DNA from: Spirochaetota bacterium
GTDB lineage: Bacteria; Spirochaetota; UBA4802; UBA5550
Direction: 5' to 3'
DNA: 64,000 bases
Assembly (NCBI GenBank): GCA_040768125.1
Contig: JAXGNG010000002.1
Coordinates: forward strand, 42,759-106,758
Part shown: positions 1-62,921 of the stretch, in pieces
Position numbering within the stretch: position 1 is the stretch's first letter
Layout: each line of letters opens with the position of its first letter
The notes under the pieces: generated by a model
What the model saw: only the letters and a program-made list of their open reading frames with translations
What the model was told of the DNA's origin: nothing
Databases searched by the model: none
Translations under genes and position numbers: made by a program

Positions 1-1
1 G

Positions 2-613
2 ATCGACGAGTATTCGACGGGCCTCGATATCCTCGAGGACATGGAAAATGATATCGTGAAGATCAAGCAGGCCAACAAGGAGCGCAAGCACCTGAACGAG
101 CGTTTCTACTGGCAGGAGATCGATCGCCGCAACCAGGAACAGCGGCAGATATACTACAAGAAGCAGGAAGCCAAGATGAAGGCGGTGACCTACCTGACGA
201 AGTCGATCAATTACCTCGACCAGATCCAGAACTCGGAGGTAAAACAGGAGCCCCGTTTTCTGAATTTCCAGAGCAGGCTGTTCCAGGTTTACGTGTCGAC
301 CCAGTACGACCTTCACAACTTCATGCCCTGTATCCCGATCCTGGAGCGTTACGTCACCCTTTCCGACGCCAACGCCAAGGACGTGTGGGCCTACAAGTAC
401 ATGGCGAGCTGCTACGGGTACATGGAGCGGATACTCGGCAAGTACCGCCATGCCGGCGAGGACGAGATCAACCGCTACAAGAATAAGAAAAACAGGAGCA
501 TGCTTACCGCCGTGGAACTGACGTACGGCGTTGATTCACCCCATTACAAGCATATCCAGGAAATCGTCGAGCAGGACGAGAAACGGAGCGAGCGTATCAA
601 CGACTTCAAATAG
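2..613 (+). CDS. fcpA: Flagellar coiling (sheath) protein FcpA-like, 5'-truncated by the window edge
   Basis: The frame is open from base 2 (IDEYSTGLDILEDM...). Motifs NERFYWQEIDRRNQE, YDLHNFMPCIPILERY, YKYMASCY and ELTYGVDSPHYKHI match my recollection of the Leptospira FcpA C-terminal region (WYWQKVDR..., YDLQNLPQCIPILELY, ELKYGKDSPEYKHI). Confidence 0.8.
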   Translation: MDEYSTGLDILEDMENDIVKIKQANKERKHLNERFYWQEIDRRNQEQRQIYYKKQEAKMKAVTYLTKSINYLDQIQNSEVKQEPRFLNFQSRLFQVYVSTQYDLHNFMPCIPILERYVTLSDANAKDVWAYKYMASCYGYMERILGKYRHAGEDEINRYKNKKNRSMLTAVELTYGVDSPHYKHIQEIVEQDEKRSERINDFK

Positions 614-635
614 ACGCATGGAACAGCGAACAACC

Positions 636-665
636 AAACGCCCGGCGCCGTGGCCGGGCGTTTTT
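636..665. terminator. Bidirectional intrinsic terminator between fcpA and the convergent SDR
   Basis: Hairpin AAACGCCCGGC-gccgtg-GCCGGGCGTTTTT lies between the two convergent stop codons (613 and 669). Confidence 0.8.
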
Positions 666-668
666 CGT

Positions 669-1511
669 TTATCCCCGGGAGCGGATTTTTTTCTGCGCCT
701 TTTTAAGCTCTCCGTCCATGATCCGGTGTGTGAGGCGGGGGAAGTGCCGGGCTACGGACCAGAGGAGGCGCGATTGACCGGGGAGTATGTAAAATGATTC
801 CTTCATAACTCCCTTGATGAGGACTTTCGCGACATCATGGGCCGACATGAGTCCTCCTCCTTCTGACATGATCATCACCTCGGCGGGCTTTGTTTCGTTT
901 TCCTTCTCGAAGCCGGGGGTGTCGGTATCGGGGGGAAAGAGAATGGAAAAGCGGATGCCGAAGGGTTTCAGCTCGTTTCGAAGCGACTCCGTGAGGCCAA
1001 CGATTGCGTATTTCGTCGGGGAGTAGGTGGCGTAGCCGGTCATGCCCAGGAATCCCAGGACCGACGAGCAGGTGACGATGTGCCCCCTTCCTTCCTCCCT
1101 GTAGCGGGGTAGCATAACCAGGATCGGAGCGAGCTGTCCGTAGTAATTTATCTCCATGTTTTTCTTGAAGTCGTCATAGGTGAGTTTTTCGATGCTGTTC
1201 GGGTAGGCGTATCCGACGAAGTTCATCAGGTACTCCGGAGTCCCGTGTTCGGCCATGAATCCCTCCATGGCGGGACGAAGCCGGTCGATGTCAGTGGTAT
1301 CGCATGATATCGTCGACAGTATCTGGGAGTCGTCGATGCGGGTTTTTGAAAGTTCAGCTGCGGTGATCTCCAGATCACGGGCGTTACGCGCGATGATGCA
1401 GGCGTTCCCTCCGCGTGACACGAATTCCAGTGCGACAGCCTTGCCGATCCCCCGGGAGCCGCCGGCAATAAAAGCGGTTGTGCCCAGCAGGGGTGCTTTT
1501 TTCGTTACCAT
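669..1511 (-). CDS. SDR family oxidoreductase, 3-ketodihydrosphingosine reductase (KDSR/Tsc10)-like
   Basis: Rossmann motif GGSRGIG, catalytic Ser plus YSPTK, and the KDSR-type signature FPPDTDTPGFEKENETKP (human KDSR: YPPDTDTPGFAEENRTKP). Confidence 0.8.
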   Translation of the reverse strand: MVTKKAPLLGTTAFIAGGSRGIGKAVALEFVSRGGNACIIARNARDLEITAAELSKTRIDDSQILSTISCDTTDIDRLRPAMEGFMAEHGTPEYLMNFVGYAYPNSIEKLTYDDFKKNMEINYYGQLAPILVMLPRYREEGRGHIVTCSSVLGFLGMTGYATYSPTKYAIVGLTESLRNELKPFGIRFSILFPPDTDTPGFEKENETKPAEVMIMSEGGGLMSAHDVAKVLIKGVMKESFYILPGQSRLLWSVARHFPRLTHRIMDGELKKAQKKIRSRG

Positions 1512-1622
1512 GATGCCTCTCCACCGGTGCGTGTCCGGTTCACGTGATTGGTTGGCGGTGCGTCGTGTATGGCCTCGCAGATTTCAGTCCCGAGGGCGAC
1601 CTCGAACGCGCTTGGCGAAGAG

Positions 1623-1649
1623 TTGACACGTTGATGGGAAGCGTGTCAA
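1623..1649. promoter_or_regulatory. Dyad TTGACACG-N11-CGTGTCAA, a candidate activator or repressor site, or back-to-back -35 boxes
   Basis: Perfect 8-bp arms in the divergent SDR/FAAL intergenic region. Confidence 0.4.
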
Positions 1650-1770
1650 TGATTATTCCACCGACGCCATGACGCTTGGAACGGCCATATGGACGTTTTA
1701 TGTTGCGCATATGATACGCAAGTGTGGAATTTTCCCCAAAAATATCGTGTACGCATGGCATGCCGGAACG

Positions 1771-1809
1771 TTCAAGATAACTCCTGATCTGATCAGGAGT
1801 TATCTTGAA
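1771..1809. repeat. Perfect 39-bp palindrome (19-bp arms, 1-nt spacer)
   Basis: TTCAAGATAACTCCTGATC-T-GATCAGGAGTTATCTTGAA. The two arms are exact reverse complements. Confidence 0.95.
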
Positions 1810-1823
1810 TTAAAATTATGCTA

Positions 1824-1839
1824 TGGCATGGAAGTTGCT
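1824..1839 (+). promoter_or_regulatory. sigma54 (-24/-12) promoter upstream of the FAAL gene
   Basis: TGGCAT-GGAAG-TTGCT has exact GG-N10-GC spacing, close to the consensus TGGCAC-N5-TTGCW, in an AT-rich intergenic region. rpoN is encoded in this window. Confidence 0.75.
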
Positions 1840-2004
1840 TAATACTATATGGAGTGAGCGAAAATCGGCATCTAAGTTAAAATTAGTATATAAAAATAAA
1901 AACTTTCACGCCGACTGTCCCCCGTTTTTATATATGACGCGATCACCATCCATGTGGTGAAAGATGGGGATATGCATTGTGAAATTTTACAGGTGAGGAA
2001 AAAA

Positions 2005-3831
2005 ATGAAAAGCACGATGACGGAGAAAAATACTGCACACGCGGCGAATCGGGAGCACTATGATCTAAAGGCCGAAACGCTTCTCGATGTCCTGGACATG
2101 AGGGCGCGGGGGAAATCCGAGTTCCTGATATTCATGGACCTGAAGAACAGGGAATCCCGCCTCTCGGCCAGGGAGGTACACGAAAAGGGCGGTGAGGTCG
2201 CGCACTACCTTGCTGACCTTGGGATGAAGAAGGGCGACAAGGCGGTGATCATGCTACCCACGGGAGCGCATTTTGCCTTTGTCTACTTCGGGATCATCAT
2301 GGCGGGCGGTATCCCGGTGCCGGTGAGCCAGCCCGCGGGGACCGCTAATATCGGCAAGTATCTCGACAACCTGACCCACATCATTCATGACTGCGAAGCG
2401 CGTTTCTTCATTACCTATGACAAGATCAAGGCAATAGCGGGGAGTCTGATGCAGATCCCCGCCCTGGTAAACGGTTTCATACTCGACAGCGAGATATTCG
2501 CCCATCCGGTTCCCGCCGAGAAAAGGGGCGTGCTTCCCGTCGTGGGGCCGGATGACCTGGCGCTCATCCAGTATACCTCGGGCACAACGGGGAAACCCAA
2601 GGGCGTCATGCTTTCGCACAGGAACCTCCTGCACAATATCCACGGGATCGGCGTGGCGAGCGGCATGACGCCCGATGACGTGGGGATCAGCTGGCTTCCG
2701 ATGTACCACGATATGGGACTCATAGGAGGATTCCTGAGCACTCTTTACTGGGACCTGGTCTTGGTGCTGATGTCGCCGGAGGCCTTCATCTTTCGACCGA
2801 TCTGGTGGCTTGAGAACATATCGAAATACAGGGTCACCATGGGCGTTGCGCCCAACTTCGGCTATCACTACTGCGTCACCAGGATCGACGATCACGACGT
2901 GGACCGGCTTGATCTCTCCTCGTGGCGTCTGGCCCTTAACGGCGCTGAGCCGATAGATCGCGGCACCCTCACGAAGTTCGTTGAAAAGTTCAGACCCGCA
3001 GGCCTGAGGGACGATATATTTCTTCCCGTCTACGGGATGGCGGAAAACAGCCTGGCGGCGACCTTCCCCTCCCTGGACGCCACCACGGTGGCGAGGCGTT
3101 TCAAGCGGGACGTTCTCGAGTTCGAACAGCGCGCCGAGGACACCGGGAGCGAAAACATGAAAGAATACATTGACCTGGTTTCCGTCGGCTACCCCCTCCT
3201 GGGACAGGAGGTAAGGATCTCGGGGGAGGATGGTTCCACCCTGAATGAGCGGCAGGTGGGCGAGGTCCTCGTGAAGAGCCCGAGCCTGACCTCCGGTTAC
3301 TACAAGAATCCGGAGGCCACGGCGGCGACCATCAGGGACGGATGGCTCCACACGGGAGACATGGGATTCATCCTGGACGGCATGCTCTTCATATCCGGCA
3401 GGAAGAAGGAGATGATCATCAAGCGTGGGAAAAACATCTACCCATACGATGTCGAGCGGATCGCCTCCACGGTGAAGGGCGTCCGGCTGGGATGCATTGC
3501 AGCCTTTGACGTGCATAACGAAGCCCAGGGCACCGAGGATCTCGTCCTTGTATGCGAAACGACTGAAAAGGACGCTGGGGTGCACGACGAAATAAAGCGG
3601 AACGTTCGCGAGGAAATACTGGCCAAGCTGGGGATCGCCCCCGACGACATCATGCTCGTGCCCAAGGGGACCATACCGAAGACCACGAGCGGGAAGGTCC
3701 AGCGGATACTCTGCAAGAAAATCTACCTTGAAGACGATTTTGTACCGAAAAAGCACCTGAATTTCCTGGTCCTTGCCAGGACCTTCTTCGCGAGCCACTT
3801 CCATCTCTTTCGGAGGCGCCTGTCGAACTGA
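2005..3831 (+). CDS. Fatty acyl-AMP ligase (FAAL), acyl-ACP loading adenylation enzyme
   Basis: Motifs YTSGTTGKPKGV, SWLPMYHDMGLIG, APNFGY, GAEPID, YGMAE, LHTGDMG and IPKTTSGKVQR are of the FAAL type. I chose ATG 2005 because it follows a GGTGAGG RBS; the ORF track opens at 1954. Confidence 0.88.
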   Translation: MKSTMTEKNTAHAANREHYDLKAETLLDVLDMRARGKSEFLIFMDLKNRESRLSAREVHEKGGEVAHYLADLGMKKGDKAVIMLPTGAHFAFVYFGIIMAGGIPVPVSQPAGTANIGKYLDNLTHIIHDCEARFFITYDKIKAIAGSLMQIPALVNGFILDSEIFAHPVPAEKRGVLPVVGPDDLALIQYTSGTTGKPKGVMLSHRNLLHNIHGIGVASGMTPDDVGISWLPMYHDMGLIGGFLSTLYWDLVLVLMSPEAFIFRPIWWLENISKYRVTMGVAPNFGYHYCVTRIDDHDVDRLDLSSWRLALNGAEPIDRGTLTKFVEKFRPAGLRDDIFLPVYGMAENSLAATFPSLDATTVARRFKRDVLEFEQRAEDTGSENMKEYIDLVSVGYPLLGQEVRISGEDGSTLNERQVGEVLVKSPSLTSGYYKNPEATAATIRDGWLHTGDMGFILDGMLFISGRKKEMIIKRGKNIYPYDVERIASTVKGVRLGCIAAFDVHNEAQGTEDLVLVCETTEKDAGVHDEIKRNVREEILAKLGIAPDDIMLVPKGTIPKTTSGKVQRILCKKIYLEDDFVPKKHLNFLVLARTFFASHFHLFRRRLSN

Positions 3832-4015
3832 AGGGAAACGGCACCTCTCCGGATTTGAGTGTCCGGCGAGGCCGCCGGGACGGCCCTGCCTGGAGAGGAG
3901 GAAACCGCGCCTCATTGACGGGAACACATTAAATACTGGTTGCTAAATCGAAGGGCCGTTGTAGCATTCGCCCGCGGCGTATGCCGCGGGTTTATCGCAC
4001 CAAGGAGAAAATGAA

Positions 4016-4264
4016 ATGGGAATAGATCCGATCACGATACGCAGGGACTTTCTCGGGATCGTCGCGAAGCTCGCCGGCAGGAAGGCCGAGGAGCTGAAGG
4101 ACGGCGATCGCTTCAGGGAGGATCTCGGGTTCGATAGTCTCAAGAGCATGGAGGCGATTTCCCGGATAACCGAGTTGTATGATTTCGATCCCGACCTCGA
4201 CGAGGTGATGGAGCTCCAGACGGTCATCGAGGTGATCCGGTACCTGGAAAAAAAACTGGCCTAG
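4016..4264 (+). CDS. Dedicated acyl carrier protein
   Basis: 82 aa, acidic, with the phosphopantetheine motif DLGFDSL and an AAGGAG RBS. It is distinct from the housekeeping acpP at 62685. Confidence 0.9.
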   Translation: MGIDPITIRRDFLGIVAKLAGRKAEELKDGDRFREDLGFDSLKSMEAISRITELYDFDPDLDEVMELQTVIEVIRYLEKKLA

Positions 4265-4276
4265 GGGAATTGCACC

Positions 4277-5473
4277 ATGAGCAGGCTTATCAGCGAAAAC
4301 ATGAAAAAGCAGGCGGCGCTTCTTTCCATGCTAAGGAAGGAAAACATCTACACGTACAGTCTCGAAGTCACCTCCTCCTGCGAAAACCGCATCGTGGTGA
4401 GCGGCAAGGAGCGCATCAACTTCATATCGAACAACTATCTGGGTTTTTCAACGCATCCAAAGGTGCTCGAGGCCTGCGCCGGGGCAATGGAGAAGTACGG
4501 CCTCGGTATCGGCGGGTCTCCCCTTGCCTGCGGCACCACGGATATACACTACCGGCTCCAGGAAAAGATCGCCGGGATATACGAGCAGGAGGCCTGCGTG
4601 CTCCTTCCCAGCGGCTACCAGGCGCTGCTTGCCTCGATACAGGCGGCCGTGGGACGCGGGGACGTCGCGCTCCTCGACGGCCTTGTACACCGGAGCATCA
4701 TCGACGGCGTCGCCCTTTCGGGAAGCGACAAGCGAATGTGGCTTCACAACGACACGGAGGATCTCGAGACGCTTCTAAAACGCGTGTCGCAGAAATACGC
4801 CCGGATGCTCATCGTCGTTGATTCCGTCTACAGCATGGACGGTGACTGGGCGGACCTGCCGGAGCTCAGTCGACTGAAAGGGACCTACGACGCAATGCTC
4901 CTGATCGATGAGGCCCACAGCCTCGGAGTTCTCGGTCCGCGGGGATATGGCCTTCCGGACCATTTCGACATGCCGAAGGCCCCCGACATCGTCGCGGGCA
5001 CCTTCTCCAAATTCGCCGGAGCGGTGGGGGGCTTCGTGGCGGGCCCCGCGGATTTTATAGACCATCTTCGCCACAACGCGTCGGCATACATATTCTCCGC
5101 CTCGCTGCCCCCCATGACCGCGGCGGGGGTCTATCGCTCCTTCGAGCTTCTCGACGAGGAACCCCGCTGGCGCGACATGCTGTGGGATAACATCCGGTAC
5201 TTCCAGGCCGGATTGAAGAACCTCGGTTTCGATATCGGCCACTCGCGCACGGCCGTGGTGCCCATCATCATACGCGACGTCGAGAAAACGATGACCTTCA
5301 ACAAGATGATCTTCGAGGAGGGCGTCTACGCGTCGCCCATCGTGCATCCCGCCGTTCCCCCTTCGGAATCGCGCATCAGGCTCGGCCTGATGGCGACGCA
5401 CACGAGGGAGGACCTGGACAGGAGCTTCGATGTGTTCGGCAGGGTGGGGCGCAAGCTCGGCATCATCCCGTAA
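4277..5473 (+). CDS. PLP-dependent alpha-oxoamine synthase, serine palmitoyltransferase-like
   Basis: Motifs SNNYLG, HRSIIDG, DSVYSMDGD, DEAHS and the PLP-lysine motif GTFSKFAGAVGG (the SPT-type GTFSK form). It starts 12 bp downstream of the ACP. Confidence 0.8.
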   Translation: MSRLISENMKKQAALLSMLRKENIYTYSLEVTSSCENRIVVSGKERINFISNNYLGFSTHPKVLEACAGAMEKYGLGIGGSPLACGTTDIHYRLQEKIAGIYEQEACVLLPSGYQALLASIQAAVGRGDVALLDGLVHRSIIDGVALSGSDKRMWLHNDTEDLETLLKRVSQKYARMLIVVDSVYSMDGDWADLPELSRLKGTYDAMLLIDEAHSLGVLGPRGYGLPDHFDMPKAPDIVAGTFSKFAGAVGGFVAGPADFIDHLRHNASAYIFSASLPPMTAAGVYRSFELLDEEPRWRDMLWDNIRYFQAGLKNLGFDIGHSRTAVVPIIIRDVEKTMTFNKMIFEEGVYASPIVHPAVPPSESRIRLGLMATHTREDLDRSFDVFGRVGRKLGIIP

Positions 5474-5491
5474 CGGAACGTACCCGCGTTG

Positions 5492-5914
5492 CTAATCGAG
5501 GTCGATGGATGTCCCCGACATGGCCTTCACGGGGCATGCGGTTTTGCACATGCCGCAGGCCACGCACTTTTCCTGGTTGAAGTGCACTTCCATGGTGGCG
5601 CGGTCGATCGACAGGGCGTCCACGCGGCATACCGAGGTGCAGGCGCCGCAGTGAATGCACCGCTCGTCGTCCCGTGAGATCCGGTCGACGATGGGCTCGA
5701 TGGTCACGCCTTCCCGCGCGAGATACTCCAGGCACGCGGCGATCGATTCCTCGCTGTTCCCCCGGAGCTCCAGTATGATTCTCCCCTCAAGTTTCGGCAG
5801 GATCTTCGCCTCCAGGACGTTGAAGGTCGCGTCGAAGTCCCGGGCGAGCCGGTAGATGATCGGCTTGTACATGATCGTCTTGTTGAAAATCAGCAGCACG
5901 TTCTTGGTTATCAT
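5492..5914 (-). CDS. NIL-domain 2x[4Fe-4S] ferredoxin (MA1822-type partner of the homocysteine synthesis enzyme)
   Basis: An N-terminal NIL-like domain (KPIIYRLARDFDATFNVLEAKI) followed by CIHCGACTSVC and CVACGMCKTACP. The start ATG 5914 overlaps the upstream stop (ATGA). Confidence 0.85.
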   Translation of the reverse strand: MITKNVLLIFNKTIMYKPIIYRLARDFDATFNVLEAKILPKLEGRIILELRGNSEESIAACLEYLAREGVTIEPIVDRISRDDERCIHCGACTSVCRVDALSIDRATMEVHFNQEKCVACGMCKTACPVKAMSGTSIDLD

Positions 5915-6648
5915 GACGAGGCTCCCCTGGAAATATCGGCCAGCTCTACCTGGCCGAGGGCAAGGAGGCGGTCGCGGAGGACGATGAGCACTCCCCGGGC
6001 GCCGCGGCCCATGGCGAAGGACGCGGCGTCCTCCATGTCCTCCTCCCGGGTCACGCGGTTGCACACCTCCGTGGCGAGCGCGTCGGCCAGGGCCGCCGTG
6101 GGGGCGATGACCGTGGCCGCGTCGGCCCTTCCGAAGCTGAAGGAGGGGCCGATCCGCGCCGAGGAGGTGCATACGCCGCAGGGAGTCATGGAGGGGTCGA
6201 TAACAAGGGCCAGGCCCCTGAAGGCATCGATTCCCGGATAGACGGATACCAGGGCGGGCCTCGAGAGCTTCATCCAGACATCGCCGCCGTTTTCAACGAT
6301 AATTTCGACTGATTCGCCCAGGAGCGCGCGGCCCGTCATTTCAGCGACGGAGCCCGCCACCGCGGCCATGGGACCGACGCCGGCCTTCTCCGACGCGTCG
6401 TACATCATGGTCGCGATTTCAGGGCATCCTTCGCGCCGCTCCACCGGGGTGTATGAGGTATGGAAGGATCCCTGCAGGGCGATCTGGGCCCGCAGCTCGT
6501 CACGGAGCTGACGGACGACCGCCTCGGCTTCGGCGGAGAGATCCCGAGAGGCCCTGACGTAAAGGTCCGAGGTCTCGACCTTCACGCGGAAGCTCGTCCA
6601 GCGCTCCGTATCGGGACTGGCCCGGTAGAACCTTTCAGCGCGCTTCAT
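5911..6648 (-). CDS. UPF0280/ApbE-like sulfur-assimilation protein (COG2122, MA1715-like)
   Basis: Motifs GPMAAVAG, IVENGGD, GVCTSS and GPSFSFGRADA, with supporting operon context. Confidence 0.85.
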   Translation of the reverse strand: MKRAERFYRASPDTERWTSFRVKVETSDLYVRASRDLSAEAEAVVRQLRDELRAQIALQGSFHTSYTPVERREGCPEIATMMYDASEKAGVGPMAAVAGSVAEMTGRALLGESVEIIVENGGDVWMKLSRPALVSVYPGIDAFRGLALVIDPSMTPCGVCTSSARIGPSFSFGRADAATVIAPTAALADALATEVCNRVTREEDMEDAASFAMGRGARGVLIVLRDRLLALGQVELADISRGASS

Positions 6649-7828
6649 CGTTTTTCCCGTGGGGCACCGTGGGAATGGGGGACTGGGGCGCCCCGAGCGT
6701 GAAGCCGTTCATCACCCAATCGCGAAGCTCATTGGCGATTGTTCTCGCCATGGAGTAGCTCGAAAGGGGCGAGGAGTCGATTGTTCGTCCCATGAAGTTG
6801 ATGCTGCCGCTTTTCAGTTCCGCGTAACTCACCTCTCCCAGGCTTCGCGCGATCCCGGATGGGAAATCGTTTCCGTAGTCCACGACGGGGCAGAAAATGT
6901 CGCGATCGGAGCGTCCGGTGAAACCGGCGAGTTCGGGGTTGAGCATCGGTATCGGGATGCCGATGCCGATCATGATCGAACAGCCGTAACCGGTGAAGGA
7001 GGCGCCGCGGACAAAGCGAGGGTCCATAGCCTTCATGTCGCCCACCACGGCCAGGGTCCCGCCGCCTTCCCGGGGGATTCCGTCGGGTCCCCGGCGGCAT
7101 CCCGGGTTGTGCTGGGTACCGTGCCATGCCACGGAACCCGGGGCGCCGCAGAGAAAGATCCTTGTGCCGGGCCCTATGGTCCAGTAATAGGGGTCGTTCA
7201 GGAGGGGGCTGAGCTGTCCGGCGCTGGAATAGGTCACGTTCGCCATGTCGGGTTTGAGGATGCCCATGTAGGTGTAGATGGTCTTCTGGGAAGCGTTTAT
7301 CGCGCAGTTGTAGTTCTGGTACGCGTTGCGGGGGTTGAACATGATGGCTTCCCGGCAGTCGTGGATGGTGATTTCCGCCTCGTGCTCCCGGAGGGGATAA
7401 CAGCCGGTGCCGTACCCCGATGCCCTGAAGTTGATCCGCTTCCCCGCGATCAGGTCCTCGATGACGTGACCCCCGCCGTAGGCGAAGGCCCCCGGCGGCA
7501 CCATGTTGAGGGGATCGTTGTCCCTGACCTGGGCGGCGCCGATGTAACAATCCACCGCGGCGATCCCGCCGTAGGCCTCCACGCCGTTGAACCAGGCCCG
7601 CGAGGCCTTGAGCCTGGGGCGGGTGTGCCCGAAGTTGATGAAGGCCCCGGAGGAACACATTGCCCCGAAGGTCCCCGTGGTAACCACGTCGACCTTTCGG
7701 AAGGCGCCCTCGACCCCTTCGTCGTCCACGATGGAGGGCATTTCCTCCGCGGTGACCACCACGGCCGTCCCCCTGCGTATCTTCTCGTTTATCTCTTCGT
7801 AGCTTTTCTTGATTTCGATTCCGTCCAT
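6635..7828 (-). CDS. L-aspartate semialdehyde sulfurtransferase, homocysteine biosynthesis protein (COG1900/MA1821-like, no CBS domains)
   Basis: Motifs EINEKIRRGTAVVVTAEE, VDVVTTGTFGAMCSSGA, YGGGHVIEDL, NPRNAYQNY, GQLSPLLNDP and GTQHNP. Confidence 0.9.
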   Translation of the reverse strand: MDGIEIKKSYEEINEKIRRGTAVVVTAEEMPSIVDDEGVEGAFRKVDVVTTGTFGAMCSSGAFINFGHTRPRLKASRAWFNGVEAYGGIAAVDCYIGAAQVRDNDPLNMVPPGAFAYGGGHVIEDLIAGKRINFRASGYGTGCYPLREHEAEITIHDCREAIMFNPRNAYQNYNCAINASQKTIYTYMGILKPDMANVTYSSAGQLSPLLNDPYYWTIGPGTRIFLCGAPGSVAWHGTQHNPGCRRGPDGIPREGGGTLAVVGDMKAMDPRFVRGASFTGYGCSIMIGIGIPIPMLNPELAGFTGRSDRDIFCPVVDYGNDFPSGIARSLGEVSYAELKSGSINFMGRTIDSSPLSSYSMARTIANELRDWVMNGFTLGAPQSPIPTVPHGKNDEAR

Positions 7829-8039
7829 GTCATGCTCCGGGAACGGCCTGCACGTCCCGCCTGTCTGAAGCCCCTCATCAGGGGAGATCGATACGTTACC
7901 TACATCCAGGGAGGTATTTCATCAACTGTTTTTTATTCCGGCTTCAACCCTTCCCGGCGGAAAGGAGCTTTTTTTCTTGCCTCGCCGCTGCGGGTCTGTT
8001 ATCCTATGCAGGAACCGATCGCCACTACCGGAGTATGCC

Positions 8040-9695
8040 ATGTATAAACCATTTTCCCTTATCCTTGCCCTTGCCCTTTTCACCGGGGGCGCCGCGGCGG
8101 AGCGTGCCGATGAGATCGATTCACTGACTCCCTCATCGGCGATACTTTTTATTAAAACATCAAGGATCAATGATTTCGTCACTTCGGTCACGTATGTCGT
8201 TGAGAACCTGTTATCGCCGGGTAGAACGGATGCCTTCATGAAGGAGAAAAATTCCTTCAGGGACAGGACCGGCATCGATTTCCTGGATCTTGATTCATTG
8301 AAGAAAGCCGGCGTTGACGTGGAACGGCGCGCGGGGCTGGCGATTTTCCCAGCGGGGACCCGGGGGGAGGAGCGGATAGCGCTCTTTTTGCCGGTGCTGG
8401 ACGTAAAGACATTTCCCCTGGCGTTCGTCGACATGATCAAAAGGGCCTCCCCGGGAAAAGACCCGGATGTCTACCCGGCGATCACGGAATACAGGGGATA
8501 CACGACCTACCAGATCGGCAGGGATATCTTCACCGTCGCCTTTGACGGGGTCTTCGTCATGGCGTCGACTGGGGAGCTCCTGAGAAAGATACTGGATATT
8601 CGCGCCGACAGCGCGGGATACCTGGCCCTTGATCCCAGGTACAGGGAATGGAGCGCAAGGGGAGCCGGGAATTATGACCTGAGGGTTTTCGCCACGAGGG
8701 ATTTCCTGAAAGATGCCATGACGAAAAGGAAGAAAAAGGAATCAGGGGGCGAGGGGGTTGAGAAGAATGGCGGGGATGACGGTGCCTGGACCCGGGGGCG
8801 CGCCCTGATCATGGCCTCCGCTGAGCGCGAGGGCTTCACCTCGGGGGCCTCGCTTTTCAATGCCGTTGACTACGCCTTCCTGGGGGCCTCGGCGCGGTCA
8901 GGGTCCCTCAGGATCGATTTCGGCTTCAAGTTCAACGACACGAGTCCCACCGTCACTACCTTCCTTGACGTGCTGAAGACCGGCATGACCTCCCGATCCC
9001 TCCGCGTGCGGGAGGCAGCCACGTATTCATTCCTTTCGCTGGATTTCGCGAAAATCGAGGACCTCTGCCGGCGGGGTTCGCCGGGATGCCGCCAGTACGC
9101 CCGCATCAAGGAGGGGATGCGGGAGGACCTGGGGATCGACTTCCAGGCGGACCTCCTTCCCTATTATAACGGCGTGGTGAATCTCATCGCGGGCCCTCCC
9201 AGGGGCTCCGGGGGAGGATTCATCATCTATGTTCCCATGGAGGACGCGTCGAAGGCGAAGGCGATCTGGGAGAAATCATCCGCCTATCTCAGGAAAAAAT
9301 ACGAGGGCACGGATCGATTCGGAACGGGGAGAATTGGCGACAGGAATTCCTTCTGGTATATCGATTCAAAGAACAACAGGAACCACGCCGTATGCGACAA
9401 CCGCGGCCTCTACATGGGGAACGATGTTGAATTGATCAGCCTGGCCCTCGCCTCACCTGAAGCGGGCGCGGGTGAGGCCGCCATGGGGGGAGACATGAAA
9501 CTGGGCGCCGACGTTTTTTTCTTCACGCGCCTGAAGAAAGAGAGCTTTTTCGGCGCGCTGCTTTCGCTCTATTCGTACCGGAACGAGGACCTGCGTCTTC
9601 TCGTTGATAAGATGACGGACCTCGTGGTCGTCGGAGAAAAGATGGATCGGTACCTGTCGATCGCCATAGACATGAAGCTGGCAAAGCGCCGCTAG
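8040..9695 (+). CDS. Exported hypothetical protein (possibly DUF3352-like)
   Basis: Long ORF with host-like codon usage and a signal peptide MYKPFSLILALALFTGGAAA starting at ATG 8040. Confidence 0.7.
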   Translation: MYKPFSLILALALFTGGAAAERADEIDSLTPSSAILFIKTSRINDFVTSVTYVVENLLSPGRTDAFMKEKNSFRDRTGIDFLDLDSLKKAGVDVERRAGLAIFPAGTRGEERIALFLPVLDVKTFPLAFVDMIKRASPGKDPDVYPAITEYRGYTTYQIGRDIFTVAFDGVFVMASTGELLRKILDIRADSAGYLALDPRYREWSARGAGNYDLRVFATRDFLKDAMTKRKKKESGGEGVEKNGGDDGAWTRGRALIMASAEREGFTSGASLFNAVDYAFLGASARSGSLRIDFGFKFNDTSPTVTTFLDVLKTGMTSRSLRVREAATYSFLSLDFAKIEDLCRRGSPGCRQYARIKEGMREDLGIDFQADLLPYYNGVVNLIAGPPRGSGGGFIIYVPMEDASKAKAIWEKSSAYLRKKYEGTDRFGTGRIGDRNSFWYIDSKNNRNHAVCDNRGLYMGNDVELISLALASPEAGAGEAAMGGDMKLGADVFFFTRLKKESFFGALLSLYSYRNEDLRLLVDKMTDLVVVGEKMDRYLSIAIDMKLAKRR

Positions 9696-9707
9696 GGTCG
9701 AATCGTC

Positions 9708-10640
9708 ATGCGCTACCTTTTTGGCCCCGTTAATTCACGCCGCCTGGGGATTTCCCTGGGCGTCGATCTGGTCCCCCACAAGACCTGCTCGCTCAACTGC
9801 GTTTACTGCGAGTGCGGCGACACGACGGCCCTCGTGACCGATGTCGCGGAATGGGTGCCCACGCGAGACGTGATCGCCGAGCTCGACGCATATCTTGATG
9901 GCTCCCCCAGGCTGGACGTCATCACCTTCTCCGGTTCCGGGGAGCCCACCCTCCATTCCGGCATCGGGGAGGTCATACGCCATGTCAGGAAGCGTTACCC
10001 GCAGTACCGGATCGCCGTTCTGACGAACGGAACGATGCTTGTTGATCCTGGGGTGCGCCGATCGATCAACGACGCCGATATCGTTATCCCATCCCTTGAC
10101 GCCGTGGACCCGGAAATGTTCAAAAGAATCGCGCGACCCGCTCCCGGCGTCAGGATAGACGAGGTGGTCGAGGGGCTCGTCGCCTTCAGGAATGAATTCA
10201 GCGGGACCCTGCTGCTCGAGGTTTTCATTGTGCCGGGAGTGAACGACGGCGATGGGGCTCTCGCTGGTTTGAAGGATGCCTGCCTGAGGATCAGGCCCGA
10301 CAGGATACAGCTCAACACCCTTGACCGGCCCGGTGCGGTCCAGTGGATCCGTCCCGCGACGGTGGAGGAGCTGCATGCGATCGCGGCGCGCCTTGCGCCG
10401 CTGGAGGTTGAGATAATCGGGGGCCCCGCGGAAGGGGAAGCGGTTCCGTCGAGGCAGACCCCCGATCTGGAAAAAACCATTCTGCTCACCCTGAGAAGAA
10501 GGCCATCGACGATCGATGATCTGCGCGCCGCCCTGGGAGTCGATCCCGGCCTTCTCGAAGCAGCCCTCGCGAAACTGCGGGAATCGGGAATGGTGAATGT
10601 GGAACGGCTCGAGAGGGGGGAATTCTACCGGGTCGTCTAG
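9708..10640 (+). CDS. Radical SAM protein (COG0731/TYW1-like) with a C-terminal winged helix
   Basis: Motifs FGPVNSRRLGISLG, CSLNCVYC, FSGSGEPTLH and QLNTLDRP. Confidence 0.9.
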   Translation: MRYLFGPVNSRRLGISLGVDLVPHKTCSLNCVYCECGDTTALVTDVAEWVPTRDVIAELDAYLDGSPRLDVITFSGSGEPTLHSGIGEVIRHVRKRYPQYRIAVLTNGTMLVDPGVRRSINDADIVIPSLDAVDPEMFKRIARPAPGVRIDEVVEGLVAFRNEFSGTLLLEVFIVPGVNDGDGALAGLKDACLRIRPDRIQLNTLDRPGAVQWIRPATVEELHAIAARLAPLEVEIIGGPAEGEAVPSRQTPDLEKTILLTLRRRPSTIDDLRAALGVDPGLLEAALAKLRESGMVNVERLERGEFYRVV

Positions 10641-10644
10641 GGAC

Positions 10645-11322
10645 TCAGGCCAGGGGCACCAGGATCGTCGCGTAGGTCTTCGAGGTCCCGTCCGTCGTCA
10701 CGATGAAGTTCTTGTGCGAGATGTTGATGTTTTTCAGGAGGATCACCACCATCGACAGTCCAAGGCCCATTCCCTCCGCCTCGGGATCCGGGTTTTCCAT
10801 GTAGAACTCGGCGATGTTGTCGTACTTTGACGAAACCTCGATACGCTCGCTTATCTTGTTCATCTCCTTCTCCGAGAGGGGCACGTTGTTGATCACCTCG
10901 ATGATGAGATTGTTGTTGTGGATCTTCAGGTACGTGCGCGTGGAGAGCTTGTTCTTCTTTGCCTTGATGCCGTATTCAAGAAGTGCCTCCTCGTTCAGGA
11001 TCCTTCGGATCTGGGCCACGATGGTGGCCGGGTCGTCCGTTCCCTTTATCTTCCCCTCGTTGACCAGGATCGTTTTCGCGTTCGCCTTCGTGGCGTTGGC
11101 GATCAGCTCCTTGACGCAGGAGAGTATGGGTGTGAAGAGCTCTTCCTTCTTGAAGCGTTCCAGTATTTTGGCAAGGGCGAATTTGATCTTTTCCTCGGTG
11201 TCCTCAAGGGTCGCATAGGTGATAAAGACCAGGTCGCTCCTGTTTTTAAGCGCAGTCAATATCTCGGTCTGGTACTGTGCGTCGGTCTTCTTTTTCAGCA
11301 TGCCCCTGTCCCCGATATCCAT
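10645..11322 (-). CDS. Stand-alone GHKL/HATPase-like protein
   Basis: N-box-like ELIANATKAN and G-box EGMGLGL. No HisKA or sensor domain is evident. Confidence 0.6.
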   Translation of the reverse strand: MDIGDRGMLKKKTDAQYQTEILTALKNRSDLVFITYATLEDTEEKIKFALAKILERFKKEELFTPILSCVKELIANATKANAKTILVNEGKIKGTDDPATIVAQIRRILNEEALLEYGIKAKKNKLSTRTYLKIHNNNLIIEVINNVPLSEKEMNKISERIEVSSKYDNIAEFYMENPDPEAEGMGLGLSMVVILLKNINISHKNFIVTTDGTSKTYATILVPLA

Positions 11323-11402
11323 CCAGCTTCAAATAAATCATTGATTTTTTTCAAGCATTAATTACCCTTATCCGCGATAATGGGACATCCGGAGCAGATA
11401 CC

Positions 11403-12338
11403 ATGATCGATATGTTTTTCCCCTCACTTCCATCCCTCCTGACCCTCATCGGTCTCGCGTTTCTTTTCGGCCTTCTTCTTTCGGTCGCGCGGCTCAAACT
11501 CCTGGTCAAGAAGGATCCGAGGATACTCGAAATCCTTGATGCCCTTCCCGGTGCGAACTGCGGCGCCTGCGGCCTTCCCGGCTGTTCGGCCTACGCCACC
11601 AGGATCGTCGAGGAGAAGTACCAGATCGACCTCTGCCCCGTGGGGGGCGCCGAGTCGGCCGATGCCATCGCCCGGATCATGGGCGTCGAGCCTTCGGGCG
11701 GGATGAAGGCCGTCACGGCACGGGTGCGCTGCCACGGGGGAAGGGCCGAGGCGGGTAACCGCTTCATATACGAGGGGCCGAGGGATTGCGATGCGGCCCA
11801 CGGTACCATGGGAGGCCCGAAGACATGCGAGTACGGATGCCTCGGGTTCGGAAACTGCGCCAGGGTATGCCCCTTCGACGCGCTGCACATGAACGACAAC
11901 GGAATCCCGGTCGTCGACTTTGACAAATGCACGGGGTGCGGGAAGTGCGTCGCGGCCTGTCCCCGCGGCATCATCAGCCTCGAGCCCAAGGGCAACGATA
12001 TCTTCGTGATGTGCATGAACGAGGAGAAGGCGCCGGTGATGAAGAAGGGGTGCAGCGTGGGATGCATCGCCTGCAAGCTCTGCGAAAAGGCCTGCCGGCA
12101 GGCCCTGGGGGAGCGCAGCCCGGAGAAGGACCCCGCGACGATCGAGCTTGCCATTGTAGTGGACAATTTTCTCGCGCGCATAAACTACGATCTCTGCATA
12201 CAGTGCTACCGGTGCGTGGAAGTATGCCCCGTCCCGGTGATCCATCCCCTTGAGCGGTCGAAGAAGTACCAGAAAAAGGCCACCGGCGGGGCGGAGAAGG
12301 CCGCGGTGAAGGAAGACGAGGTCGTCGCGACGACATGA
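11403..12338 (+). CDS. rnfB: RnfB-like membrane-anchored polyferredoxin
   Basis: N-terminal TM helix, LPGANCGACGLPGC...CPVGG, CEYGCLGFGNCARVCPF, CTGCGKCVAACP and further CxxCxxCxxxC motifs. Confidence 0.85.
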   Translation: MIDMFFPSLPSLLTLIGLAFLFGLLLSVARLKLLVKKDPRILEILDALPGANCGACGLPGCSAYATRIVEEKYQIDLCPVGGAESADAIARIMGVEPSGGMKAVTARVRCHGGRAEAGNRFIYEGPRDCDAAHGTMGGPKTCEYGCLGFGNCARVCPFDALHMNDNGIPVVDFDKCTGCGKCVAACPRGIISLEPKGNDIFVMCMNEEKAPVMKKGCSVGCIACKLCEKACRQALGERSPEKDPATIELAIVVDNFLARINYDLCIQCYRCVEVCPVPVIHPLERSKKYQKKATGGAEKAAVKEDEVVATT

Positions 12339-62684: not shown

Positions 62685-62921
62685 ATGCCCGCACTGTTTG
62701 ATCGGGTGCAGAAGATCATTATGAAACAGCTTAACGTCGACGAGAGCCAGGTTACCGGTGACGCGTCCTTCACCGATGATCTCGGAGCGGATTCCATAGA
62801 TTCCGTGGAACTCGTCATGGCCTTCGAGGCCGAGTTCAATATCGATATCACTGAGCAGGACGCGGAGGGATTCATCAAGGTTGATGACGTGGTGAAGTAT
62901 CTCAAGGCGCGCCTCGGTTGA
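62685..62921 (+). CDS. acpP: Acyl carrier protein (housekeeping)
   Basis: DDLGADSIDSVELVMAFE, with a GGAGG RBS. Confidence 0.96.
   Translation: MPALFDRVQKIIMKQLNVDESQVTGDASFTDDLGADSIDSVELVMAFEAEFNIDITEQDAEGFIKVDDVVKYLKARLG

Follow-up and report, generated by a model that had tools for sequence, protein, structure and literature searches.

What might a spirochaete make with a fatty acid-activating ligase, a private carrier protein, an acyl-condensing synthase, and a reductase that resembles a eukaryotic sphingolipid enzyme, when all four are encoded side by side? The question is raised by a locus near the start of the window analyzed here, a stretch of 64,000 nucleotides (contig JAXGNG010000002.1, positions 42,759 to 106,758 of the forward strand) from the Spirochaetota bacterium assembly GCA_040768125.1, a genome of 4.29 Mb in 11 contigs with an estimated completeness of 95%. 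On the reverse strand at 669-1511 lies a gene for a KDSR/Tsc10-like short-chain dehydrogenase/reductase (SDR) of 280 aa (Pfam adh_short, 119 bits), proposed to be an NADPH-dependent 3-keto reductase. It is divergent from three genes on the forward strand, which encode an AasR-like fatty acyl-AMP ligase (FAAL; open reading frame 1954-3831; Pfam AMP-binding, 226 bits), a specialized acyl carrier protein (ACP) of 82 aa with a DSL phosphopantetheine site (4016-4264; Pfam PP-binding, 46 bits), and an alpha-oxoamine synthase (AOS) of 398 aa (4277-5473; Pfam Aminotran_1_2, 175 bits). The last belongs to a clade resembling serine palmitoyltransferase (SPT) and is proposed to be a long-chain-base synthase. 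An earlier note on this DNA had described these four genes, with a GTFSK motif in the AOS and a KDSR-type motif in the SDR; the open reading frames and the Pfam matches confirm that description.

We propose that the cluster encodes the front end of a pathway to a ceramide-type (sphingolipid-like) membrane lipid, put together as a hybrid of known parts, and we assign this reading a probability of roughly 60%. In the predicted scheme, the FAAL would adenylate a free long-chain fatty acid and transfer it to the dedicated ACP, in the manner of proteobacterial AasR and AcpR. The AOS, which depends on pyridoxal phosphate (PLP), would join the acyl-ACP to a small amino acid, by default guessed to be serine, forming a 3-keto long-chain base. 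The SDR would then use NADPH to reduce this base at its 3-keto group, standing in for CerR, the NDUFA9-like epimerase-family enzyme that carries out this step in Caulobacter and E. coli, and an N-acyltransferase of the YghO/bCerS type, unlinked in this genome, would add a second acyl chain to give a dihydroceramide-type lipid. What we infer is every substrate in this scheme, which amino acid is used, and whether reduction precedes or follows N-acylation.

That the four genes serve one lipid route, leading from free fatty acid through acyl-ACP and a 2-amino-3-keto base to its reduction, had also been suggested in the earlier note, and this is the most plausible interpretation. The end product is likely a (dihydro)ceramide-type lipid, because a YghO/bCerS gene follows the AOS gene in sister genomes, a second type of YghO-like gene tracks the AOS, and the SDR occurs, within the spirochaete family f1 examined below, only in AOS-positive genomes. 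The free long-chain base that had been suggested as one possible product is, on the first two of these grounds, unlikely.

Acyl loading and the alpha-oxoamine synthase

In NCBIfam, the ligase is matched best by models of FAALs and acyl-ACP ligases (443 bits on NF006624, cut-off 600; 266 bits on MbtM), and the protein is 33% identical over 554 aa to the FAAL in the AasR position of E. coli BL21 (E 5e-77). Because conservation among its relatives begins near residue 18, translation probably starts at the ATG at 2005. On TIGR00517, the model of housekeeping AcpP (cut-off 70), the cluster ACP reaches 32 bits, versus 94 bits for the genome's own AcpP, which has a DSID motif and is encoded at C2:105449-105667 (window about 62685-62918, forward strand); by these scores, the cluster ACP is distinct from the housekeeping protein. 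The AOS gene starts 13 bp past the ACP stop. The locus has the gene content of an AasR-AcpR-Spt system, namely a FAAL-type ligase, a specialized ACP, and an AOS, the ACP gene immediately preceding that of the AOS. The use of a FAAL and a dedicated ACP to bypass acyl-CoA, which had been suggested for this locus, is not a novelty and is already published for the AasR-AcpR-Spt system (PMC9386255; this and the other papers cited by PMC number are drawn upon here from parts of their texts).

The AOS carries the PLP motif GTFSK, with the lysine at position 245, and is the sole AOS-family gene in a genome estimated to be 95% complete. Its best solved relative is the SPT of Sphingobacterium multivorum (319 bits). 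Further solved matches include a BioF/Kbl enzyme (257 bits), Kbl (231-252 bits), a cysteate acyltransferase (227 bits), and an alpha-proteobacterial SPT (approximately 206 bits), while CAI-1 synthase is the second-weakest of 49 solved matches (94 bits). Among the NCBIfam models, the SPT model of the Cytophaga-Flavobacteria-Bacteroides (CFB) type, NF047600, gives the highest score, 382 bits against a cut-off of 640, followed by BioF (351 against 426), Kbl (349 against 460), the beta-type SPT model NF047599 (313 against 500), the SPT model NF047603 (235 against 670), and the autoinducer-synthase model (179 against 428). Controls pass their own SPT models: E. coli BL21 Spt scores 599 bits against a cut-off of 500, and a Parabacteroides SPT scores 684 against 640.

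Trees were built from AOS homologs, annotated references from plasmid records, and E. coli BL21 Spt. The FastTree tree has 274 rows (of 276 matched sequences, 4 with fewer than 300 aligned positions were dropped), and a quick IQ-TREE tree, from which the second of each pair of support values is taken, has 75 rows. In both, the AOS groups with its relatives in a clade of their own (support 100 and 100). The neighboring clades consist of the Bacteroidales and E. coli SPTs (99 and 95) and of BioF/Kbl (100 and 99). Because the backbone is a polytomy and neither grouping of the AOS is rejected by the approximately unbiased (AU) test, the trees give no assignment. The AOS is accordingly not callable as an SPT by its sequence and, in these trees, stands beside the clade of characterized SPTs. 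On this point the earlier reading needs correcting: the enzyme falls below all SPT cut-offs, forms its own clade, and is compatible with either placement in the AU test.

For the Sphingobacterium SPT, the residues around PLP and serine have been described (PMC10196870), and the AOS keeps Asn52, Tyr54, Gly80, Ser81, His138, Ser186, Asp211, Ala213, His214, Thr242, Ser244, and Lys245. These positions do not discriminate between functions, because most are common to the whole AOS family.

By their labels, the relatives in the AOS clade come from Desulfobacterales, which are the closest outside the spirochaetes (60-63% identity), Myxococcota, Acidobacteriota, and Clostridia. In a survey of 401 sampled Spirochaetota genomes, orthologs with at least 63% identity are found in 22, all of them in one family (f1), and 72 genomes encode an AOS that matches the CFB-SPT model at E <=1e-120, none of which scores above the cut-off. 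A metagenome scan with very general AOS patterns returned 80 loci, only one of which (L045, 1.6 kb) falls in the clade of the window AOS, and a scan of genome contigs for relatives of the window AOS found them in spirochaetes only. Many AOS representatives have N-terminal extensions of 130-200 aa or are embedded in megasynthases. On a Streptomyces plasmid (NZ_CP108162.1; L044:3151-7188, forward strand), an annotated bifunctional SDR/AOS fusion of 1345 aa is encoded next to a polyketide synthase-like gene and a thioesterase gene.

The reductase, the N-acyltransferase, and conservation of the locus

The SDR has the classical features of a eukaryote-type KDSR, a Gly-rich NAD(P) motif and a catalytic Ser-Tyr-Lys set. 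Gly17-x-x-x-Gly21-x-Gly23, Asn122, Ser150, Tyr163, and Lys167 are shared by all 22 family members compared. Residues 193-209 read PPDTDTPGFEKENETKP; the pattern PPDT.T.G...E....P is invariant across 22 diverse members, and the fuller PPDT.TPG...EN.TKP is invariant or nearly so. Judged against solved structures only, the best relative of the SDR is fungal TSC10 (8jat; 94 bits, E 1e-25, single sequence), and a profile of the family scores 137 bits on TSC10 versus 107 on the next single-domain SDR. Past the catalytic Tyr and Lys, PGF..EN.TKP aligns between the two proteins. These matches bear out the earlier description of the SDR as KDSR/Tsc10-like. Relatives in the JGI and ESM Atlas collections are labeled 3-dehydrosphinganine reductase; as these names are automatic, we treat them as leads only. 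The family also includes members named Lokiarchaeota/Promethearchaeia and Chloroflexi, at 49-55% identity.

The window SDR scores 80 bits on the Bacteroides KdsR model NF049977 (cut-off 400), where 12 other SDRs of the genome score higher and it ranks thirteenth of the 20 listed. No CerR is found in the window or in the sister loci. With E. coli CerR as the one query, the best match in the genome has 25% identity (E 1.7e-13), which is the level of a generic epimerase. NCBIfam has no model of YghO/bCerS or of CerR, so there is no curated cut-off for either.

An SDR directly upstream of an AOS is also found in other spirochaete families (L131:7413-9557, reverse strand, in genome G230; G253:C23:12480-14542, reverse strand). 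These two SDRs belong to the same motif group as the window SDR (38-39% identity), and the AOSs beside them score about 500 bits on the CFB-SPT model (cut-off 640) versus 386 on the next model. On this sequence evidence, SPT-like potential seems to be wider in Spirochaetota than family f1.

Further SDRs of this kind occur in other settings. The present genome encodes a second SDR of the motif group (CPPETDTP...EESKTIP) at C1:956737-957540, reverse strand (L020:1501-2304), with 34% identity to the window SDR, and similar SDRs (36-41% identity) are common in neighboring spirochaete families. In genome G268 (L133:8014-10991), an SDR ortholog with 54% identity is divergent from a FadD11-like acyl-CoA ligase, alongside a second SDR and a methyltransferase, with no ACP or AOS beside it.

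The cluster in the window contains no bCerS-like gene. This absence had been reported before and is correct for the window, but it does not extend to sister genomes or to the rest of this genome. In three sister loci (L001, L006, and L126), a gene for a protein of 376 aa begins 3 to approximately 40 bp past the AOS, and its product is 31-33% identical to E. coli YghO over the full length (E 1e-61 to 1e-65). The only YghO-like copy in this genome lies at C4:24462-25586, reverse strand (L130:9459-10586), and its product shares 29.6% identity with E. coli YghO across 379 aa (E 9e-48). Because this gene, which the ceramide route would need, lies on contig C4, the cluster is not self-contained as had been claimed.

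The C4 gene adjoins DctP and DctQM genes of a tripartite ATP-independent periplasmic (TRAP) transporter, and the SDR-AOS pair of genome G230 (L131) also lies behind a TRAP set, TAtT-DctP-DctQM. This adjacency may hint at uptake of lipids or fatty acids linked to the pathway.

Co-occurrence was counted in family f1, which comprises 64 genomes in 25 genera. An AOS ortholog is present in 26 of the 64 genomes, spread over 7 of the 25 genera. A YghO-like gene of any type is found in 23 of these 26 and in 3 of the 38 AOS-negative genomes, two of which are only 63-65% complete while the match in the third is weak (22% identity). YghO-like genes of the C4 type (at least 70% identity) are present in 21/26 AOS-positive and 0/38 AOS-negative genomes, and SDR orthologs in 20/26 and 0/38, respectively. 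Of the 20 genomes with both SDR and AOS, 17 have them no more than approximately 4 kb apart, and the other three have them on separate small contigs. The co-occurrence of the four genes that had been predicted for related genomes thus holds in one direction, the SDR being confined to AOS-positive genomes, but not in the other, as six AOS-positive genomes do without it. Among the 80 metagenome loci mentioned above, the AOS is followed directly by a YghO-like gene in 14, and 8 of these 14 also contain a CerR-like gene.

The layout itself, an FcpA-like gene and an SDR gene divergent from FAAL-ACP-AOS, recurs across related spirochaete loci in metagenome-assembled genomes, and the gene arrangement is not due to chance. 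The FcpA-like gene (window 2-613, forward strand) encodes the C-terminal part of a flagellar coiling protein (172 bits on NF047448, cut-off 400); most related loci retain this gene upstream of the SDR, as would fit a Leptospirales-like lineage. Between it and the SDR gene, a G+C-rich hairpin at 636-663, with an 11-pair stem including 8 G-C pairs and T runs on both strands, matches the terminator consensus only and is likely a shared, bidirectional terminator of the FcpA-like gene, which ends at 613, and the SDR gene, whose stop is at 669. Promoters in both directions are presumed from the gene layout to lie in the divergent region between SDR and FAAL (1512-2004). There, a promoter scan found one weak sigma-70-like match, no more than in shuffled sequences, and Rfam gave no match in window positions 1-12000 at E up to 0.1.

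On the other side of the cluster, the next gene is convergent with the AOS gene and begins 18 bp from its stop. It is part of a trio at 5492-7828 on the reverse strand that encodes a HcyBio/COG1900 protein (PF01837, 479 bits), a PRK04334-like protein, and a 4Fe-4S ferredoxin with a NIL domain, and that is kept beside the cluster in relatives. We take the trio to resemble the methanogen-type set for sulfide-dependent homocysteine synthesis. In two libraries of anaerobic-digester metatranscriptomes, short contigs at a depth of 2-4 match stretches of the FAAL gene and the AOS gene's 3' end with full identity, while no contig covers the SDR gene; as carry-over of DNA is possible, neither the presence nor the gaps say much.

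Weighing the alternatives

The proposal of a ceramide-type pathway starts from what was observed: which gene families are present, how they are arranged, how they co-occur, and that a biotin pathway is absent. A number of points weigh against it. The AOS reaches none of the three curated SPT cut-offs (NF047600, NF047599, NF047603), its clade stands apart on a polytomous backbone, and in the AU test on the quick tree neither its grouping with SPT (p 0.657) nor that with BioF/Kbl (p 0.661) is rejected. The substrate of the SDR is not fixed by its sequence, since many unrelated SDRs can reduce 3-keto bases (PMC11211663). The YghO-like gene on C4 is unlinked, lying between the TRAP transporter and elongation factor G, and its product is 35% identical to the in-cluster type. 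Six of the 26 AOS-positive genomes, one of them only 79% complete, have no SDR ortholog, so the SDR is dispensable to the module. Two genomes of genus g7, each 96% complete, have neither an SDR ortholog nor a YghO-like gene. This genus keeps FAAL-ACP-AOS at 59-63% identity (L129 of G188; L012 and L013), and its version may be stripped down to the keto base only or may use unrelated enzymes. Because close relatives are syntenic over the whole neighborhood, adjacency among them adds little. Finally, the counts come from one family with few independent lineages (the AOS occurs in 7 of 25 genera and the SDR in 4 of those), and they form a nested pattern among kin and are not independent events.

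In the main alternative, the same architecture would operate on alanine, glycine, or another amino acid and yield a 1-deoxy-, headless, or odd-headed ceramide analog in place of a true sphingolipid, which we consider unlikely but worth keeping in view. The position of the AOS clade outside the characterized SPTs and below their cut-offs fits this alternative, as does Leu at position 117, where the Sphingobacterium SPT has an Asn117 that contacts the PLP-Ser adduct (PMC13692747). Moreover, the Desulfobacterales named as the closest relatives outside the spirochaetes belong in the same discussion as a Black Sea study that ties 1-deoxyceramides to Desulfobacterota and/or Bacteroidota (PMC11334938). 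However, the residues that surround serine (Asn52, Tyr54, Gly80, Ser81, His138, Ser244, and Lys245) are kept (PMC10196870), and cysteate is an unlikely substrate, because the Lys that contacts the sulfonate in cysteate fatty acyltransferase (CFAT) aligns with Ala275 of the AOS (PMC13692747). To our knowledge, there is no sequence rule for the choice of amino acid by an AOS. A different doubt concerns the SDR, which could be a conserved neighbor with some other substrate; the keto group would then fall to another enzyme or stay unreduced, giving a CerR-independent or keto-lipid route. The six AOS-positive genomes that have no SDR ortholog, the 54%-identical SDR beside a FadD11-like ligase with no adjacent AOS in G268, the second SDR of the motif group elsewhere in this genome (34% identity), and the synteny that makes adjacency weak evidence all speak for such a neighbor. 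We nevertheless judge it a poor prospect, as none of the 38 AOS-negative genomes in family f1 has the SDR ortholog, SDR-AOS tandems are seen independently in two further spirochaete families, TSC10 is the top solved match of the SDR, and the best candidate for a CerR has only 25% identity.

The three forward-strand genes might instead make a small diffusible amino-ketone or amino-alcohol, either a signal like the alpha-hydroxyketones of CqsA/LqsA or a long-chain base with antimicrobial action. Such a product would suit a cluster that has no acyltransferase in the window, a genus (g7) that retains FAAL-ACP-AOS alone, and an AOS from an uncharacterized clade. It is nonetheless improbable, given that sister genomes have a bCerS-type gene beside the AOS, that YghO-like genes and the AOS co-occur, that the autoinducer-synthase model gives only 179 bits against 428, and that CAI-1 synthase ranks next to last among the solved matches. 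The least probable alternative, to which we give very little credence, is that the AOS is a housekeeping BioF or Kbl that lies beside the FAAL and ACP genes by chance. It can draw on the AOS being the only member of its family in the genome, on the closeness of the BioF (351 bits) and Kbl (349 bits) scores to the SPT score (382 bits), and on the AU test, which leaves a BioF/Kbl grouping unrejected. However, the AOS lies outside the BioF/Kbl clade (support 99-100) and is tightly coupled to the ACP and, in relatives, to a bCerS-type gene. In fetched reference loci, Kbl genes adjoin tdh and BioF genes adjoin bioA and bioD, unlike the window AOS, which adjoins an ACP gene. The best genome matches are 33 bits for bioB (cut-off 225) and 223 bits for bioA (cut-off 405; bioD was not searched). 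Because the AOS is the sole family gene and bioB and bioA are below their cut-offs, a role in biotin synthesis is very unlikely, and the earlier note's own concern that the synthase might prove to be a BioF is not borne out. The synthesis of a ceramide-type lipid remains the reading that we prefer.

Comparison with known systems

Two types of bacterial ceramide synthesis have been described. In the Caulobacter type, Spt, bCerS, and CerR act, with N-acylation proposed to precede reduction (PMC11087976); in the Bacteroides type, an unlinked SDR reduces the free base (PMC9278070). The order of N-acylation and reduction is openly debated (PMC11087976; PMC9278070). Against this background, FAAL-ACP loading together with an acyltransferase (PMC9386255) and an SDR serving as a bacterial KDSR, unlinked to the synthase (PMC9278070), are already known. 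What is new in the spirochaete locus is a Tsc10-like SDR physically linked to an AasR/AcpR-type module without CerR, an uncharacterized AOS clade, and the host phylum. As the gene set is compact, the question of step order becomes directly testable.

The locus also gives a functional context to a widespread SDR family that is automatically labeled 3-dehydrosphinganine reductase. With its members named Lokiarchaeota/Promethearchaeia and Chloroflexi, this family is relevant to the Asgard affinity reported for eukaryotic sphingolipid enzymes (PMC12872458). In addition, Spirochaetota join the candidate sphingolipid producers. A Black Sea survey reports Spt-like proteins in 38 phyla (PMC11334938). 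We found no link of spirochaetes to sphingolipid synthesis in the literature that we searched, the main text of that survey included, although its supplementary phylum list may tabulate Spirochaetota.

The sulfonolipid route of CFAT (CapB/SulA) is similar to the proposed pathway in that a long acyl thioester is joined to an amino acid by an AOS before an SDR reduces the 3-keto product (PMC13692747, PMC11211663). It differs in its synthase: on the window AOS, solved CFAT scores 227 bits versus 319 for SPT, the sulfonate-binding Lys280 is replaced by Ala275, and the PLP lysine is preceded by Ser, which SPT also has there, while CFAT has Ala (PMC13692747). Known ketocapnine reductases, moreover, are unlinked to cfat (PMC13692747, PMC11211663).

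The Bacteroides pathway, with an SPT of the BT_0870 type (NF047600) and the 3-ketosphinganine reductase BT_0972 (NF049977), shares with our proposal an SDR that would reduce the free 3-keto base, which is the eukaryotic order, and BT_0972 is the bacterial precedent for such a reduction (PMC9278070). CFB-type SPT also provides both the best curated model and the best solved relative of the window AOS. The window SDR, however, represents another subfamily, as its 80 bits against 400 on NF049977 indicate, and the genes are clustered here, while the SPT and KDSR of Bacteroides are unlinked (PMC9278070). In two fetched loci, no FAAL or ACP gene was found within 6 kb of a Bacteroidales SPT.

Eukaryotic Tsc10 (8jat) and KDSR-FVT1 offer the best solved relative of the SDR and the alignable PGF..EN.TKP motif. 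The similarity is modest, however, and the bacterial protein is 280 aa long. Eukaryotic KDSR has membrane anchors. A bolder version of our proposal is that the SDR family is a genuine prokaryotic counterpart of KDSR. The pathway would then be a true hybrid in which a eukaryote- or Asgard-type KDSR replaces CerR among bacterial AasR, AcpR, and bCerS, with reduction before acylation, and in which a third clade of long-chain-base synthases, maybe not using serine, supplies the base. We advance this version tentatively, as a possibility that is more doubtful than not. If it is true, the spirochaete clusters would be the first genomic tie of this SDR family to long-chain-base synthesis.

The closest parallel in gene content is the proteobacterial ceramide cluster of Caulobacter crescentus and E. 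coli BL21(DE3) (PMC9386255, PMC11087976). There, aasR, acpR, and spt form the 3-oxo-sphinganine module, and epi and aca (yghO, CC_1154) are required for dihydroceramide synthesis (PMC9386255). In both clusters, the gene of a FAAL-type acyl-ACP synthetase has a divergent neighbor, and a specialized ACP gene immediately precedes the AOS gene. The window FAAL and AOS are 33% and 34% identical to their E. coli BL21 counterparts, the latter being Spt, and a YghO-family N-acyltransferase is encoded elsewhere in this genome and within the cluster in sister genomes. The differences lie in the reductase, the synthase, and the host. CerR, of the NDUFA9-like epimerase family, is found in the proteobacterial cluster, while a classical Tsc10/KDSR-type SDR is the candidate here, and the window AOS sits outside the E. 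coli/Bacteroidales SPT clade and below the cut-offs of NF047599 and NF047603. In the E. coli BL21 cluster that we fetched, yghO is divergent from FAAL-cerR-ACP-spt, whereas in the spirochaete the divergent partner of the FAAL is the SDR. The spirochaete cluster thereby joins the FAAL and private-ACP loading and the bCerS-type acyltransferase of proteobacteria with a Tsc10-like SDR that is linked to its synthase.

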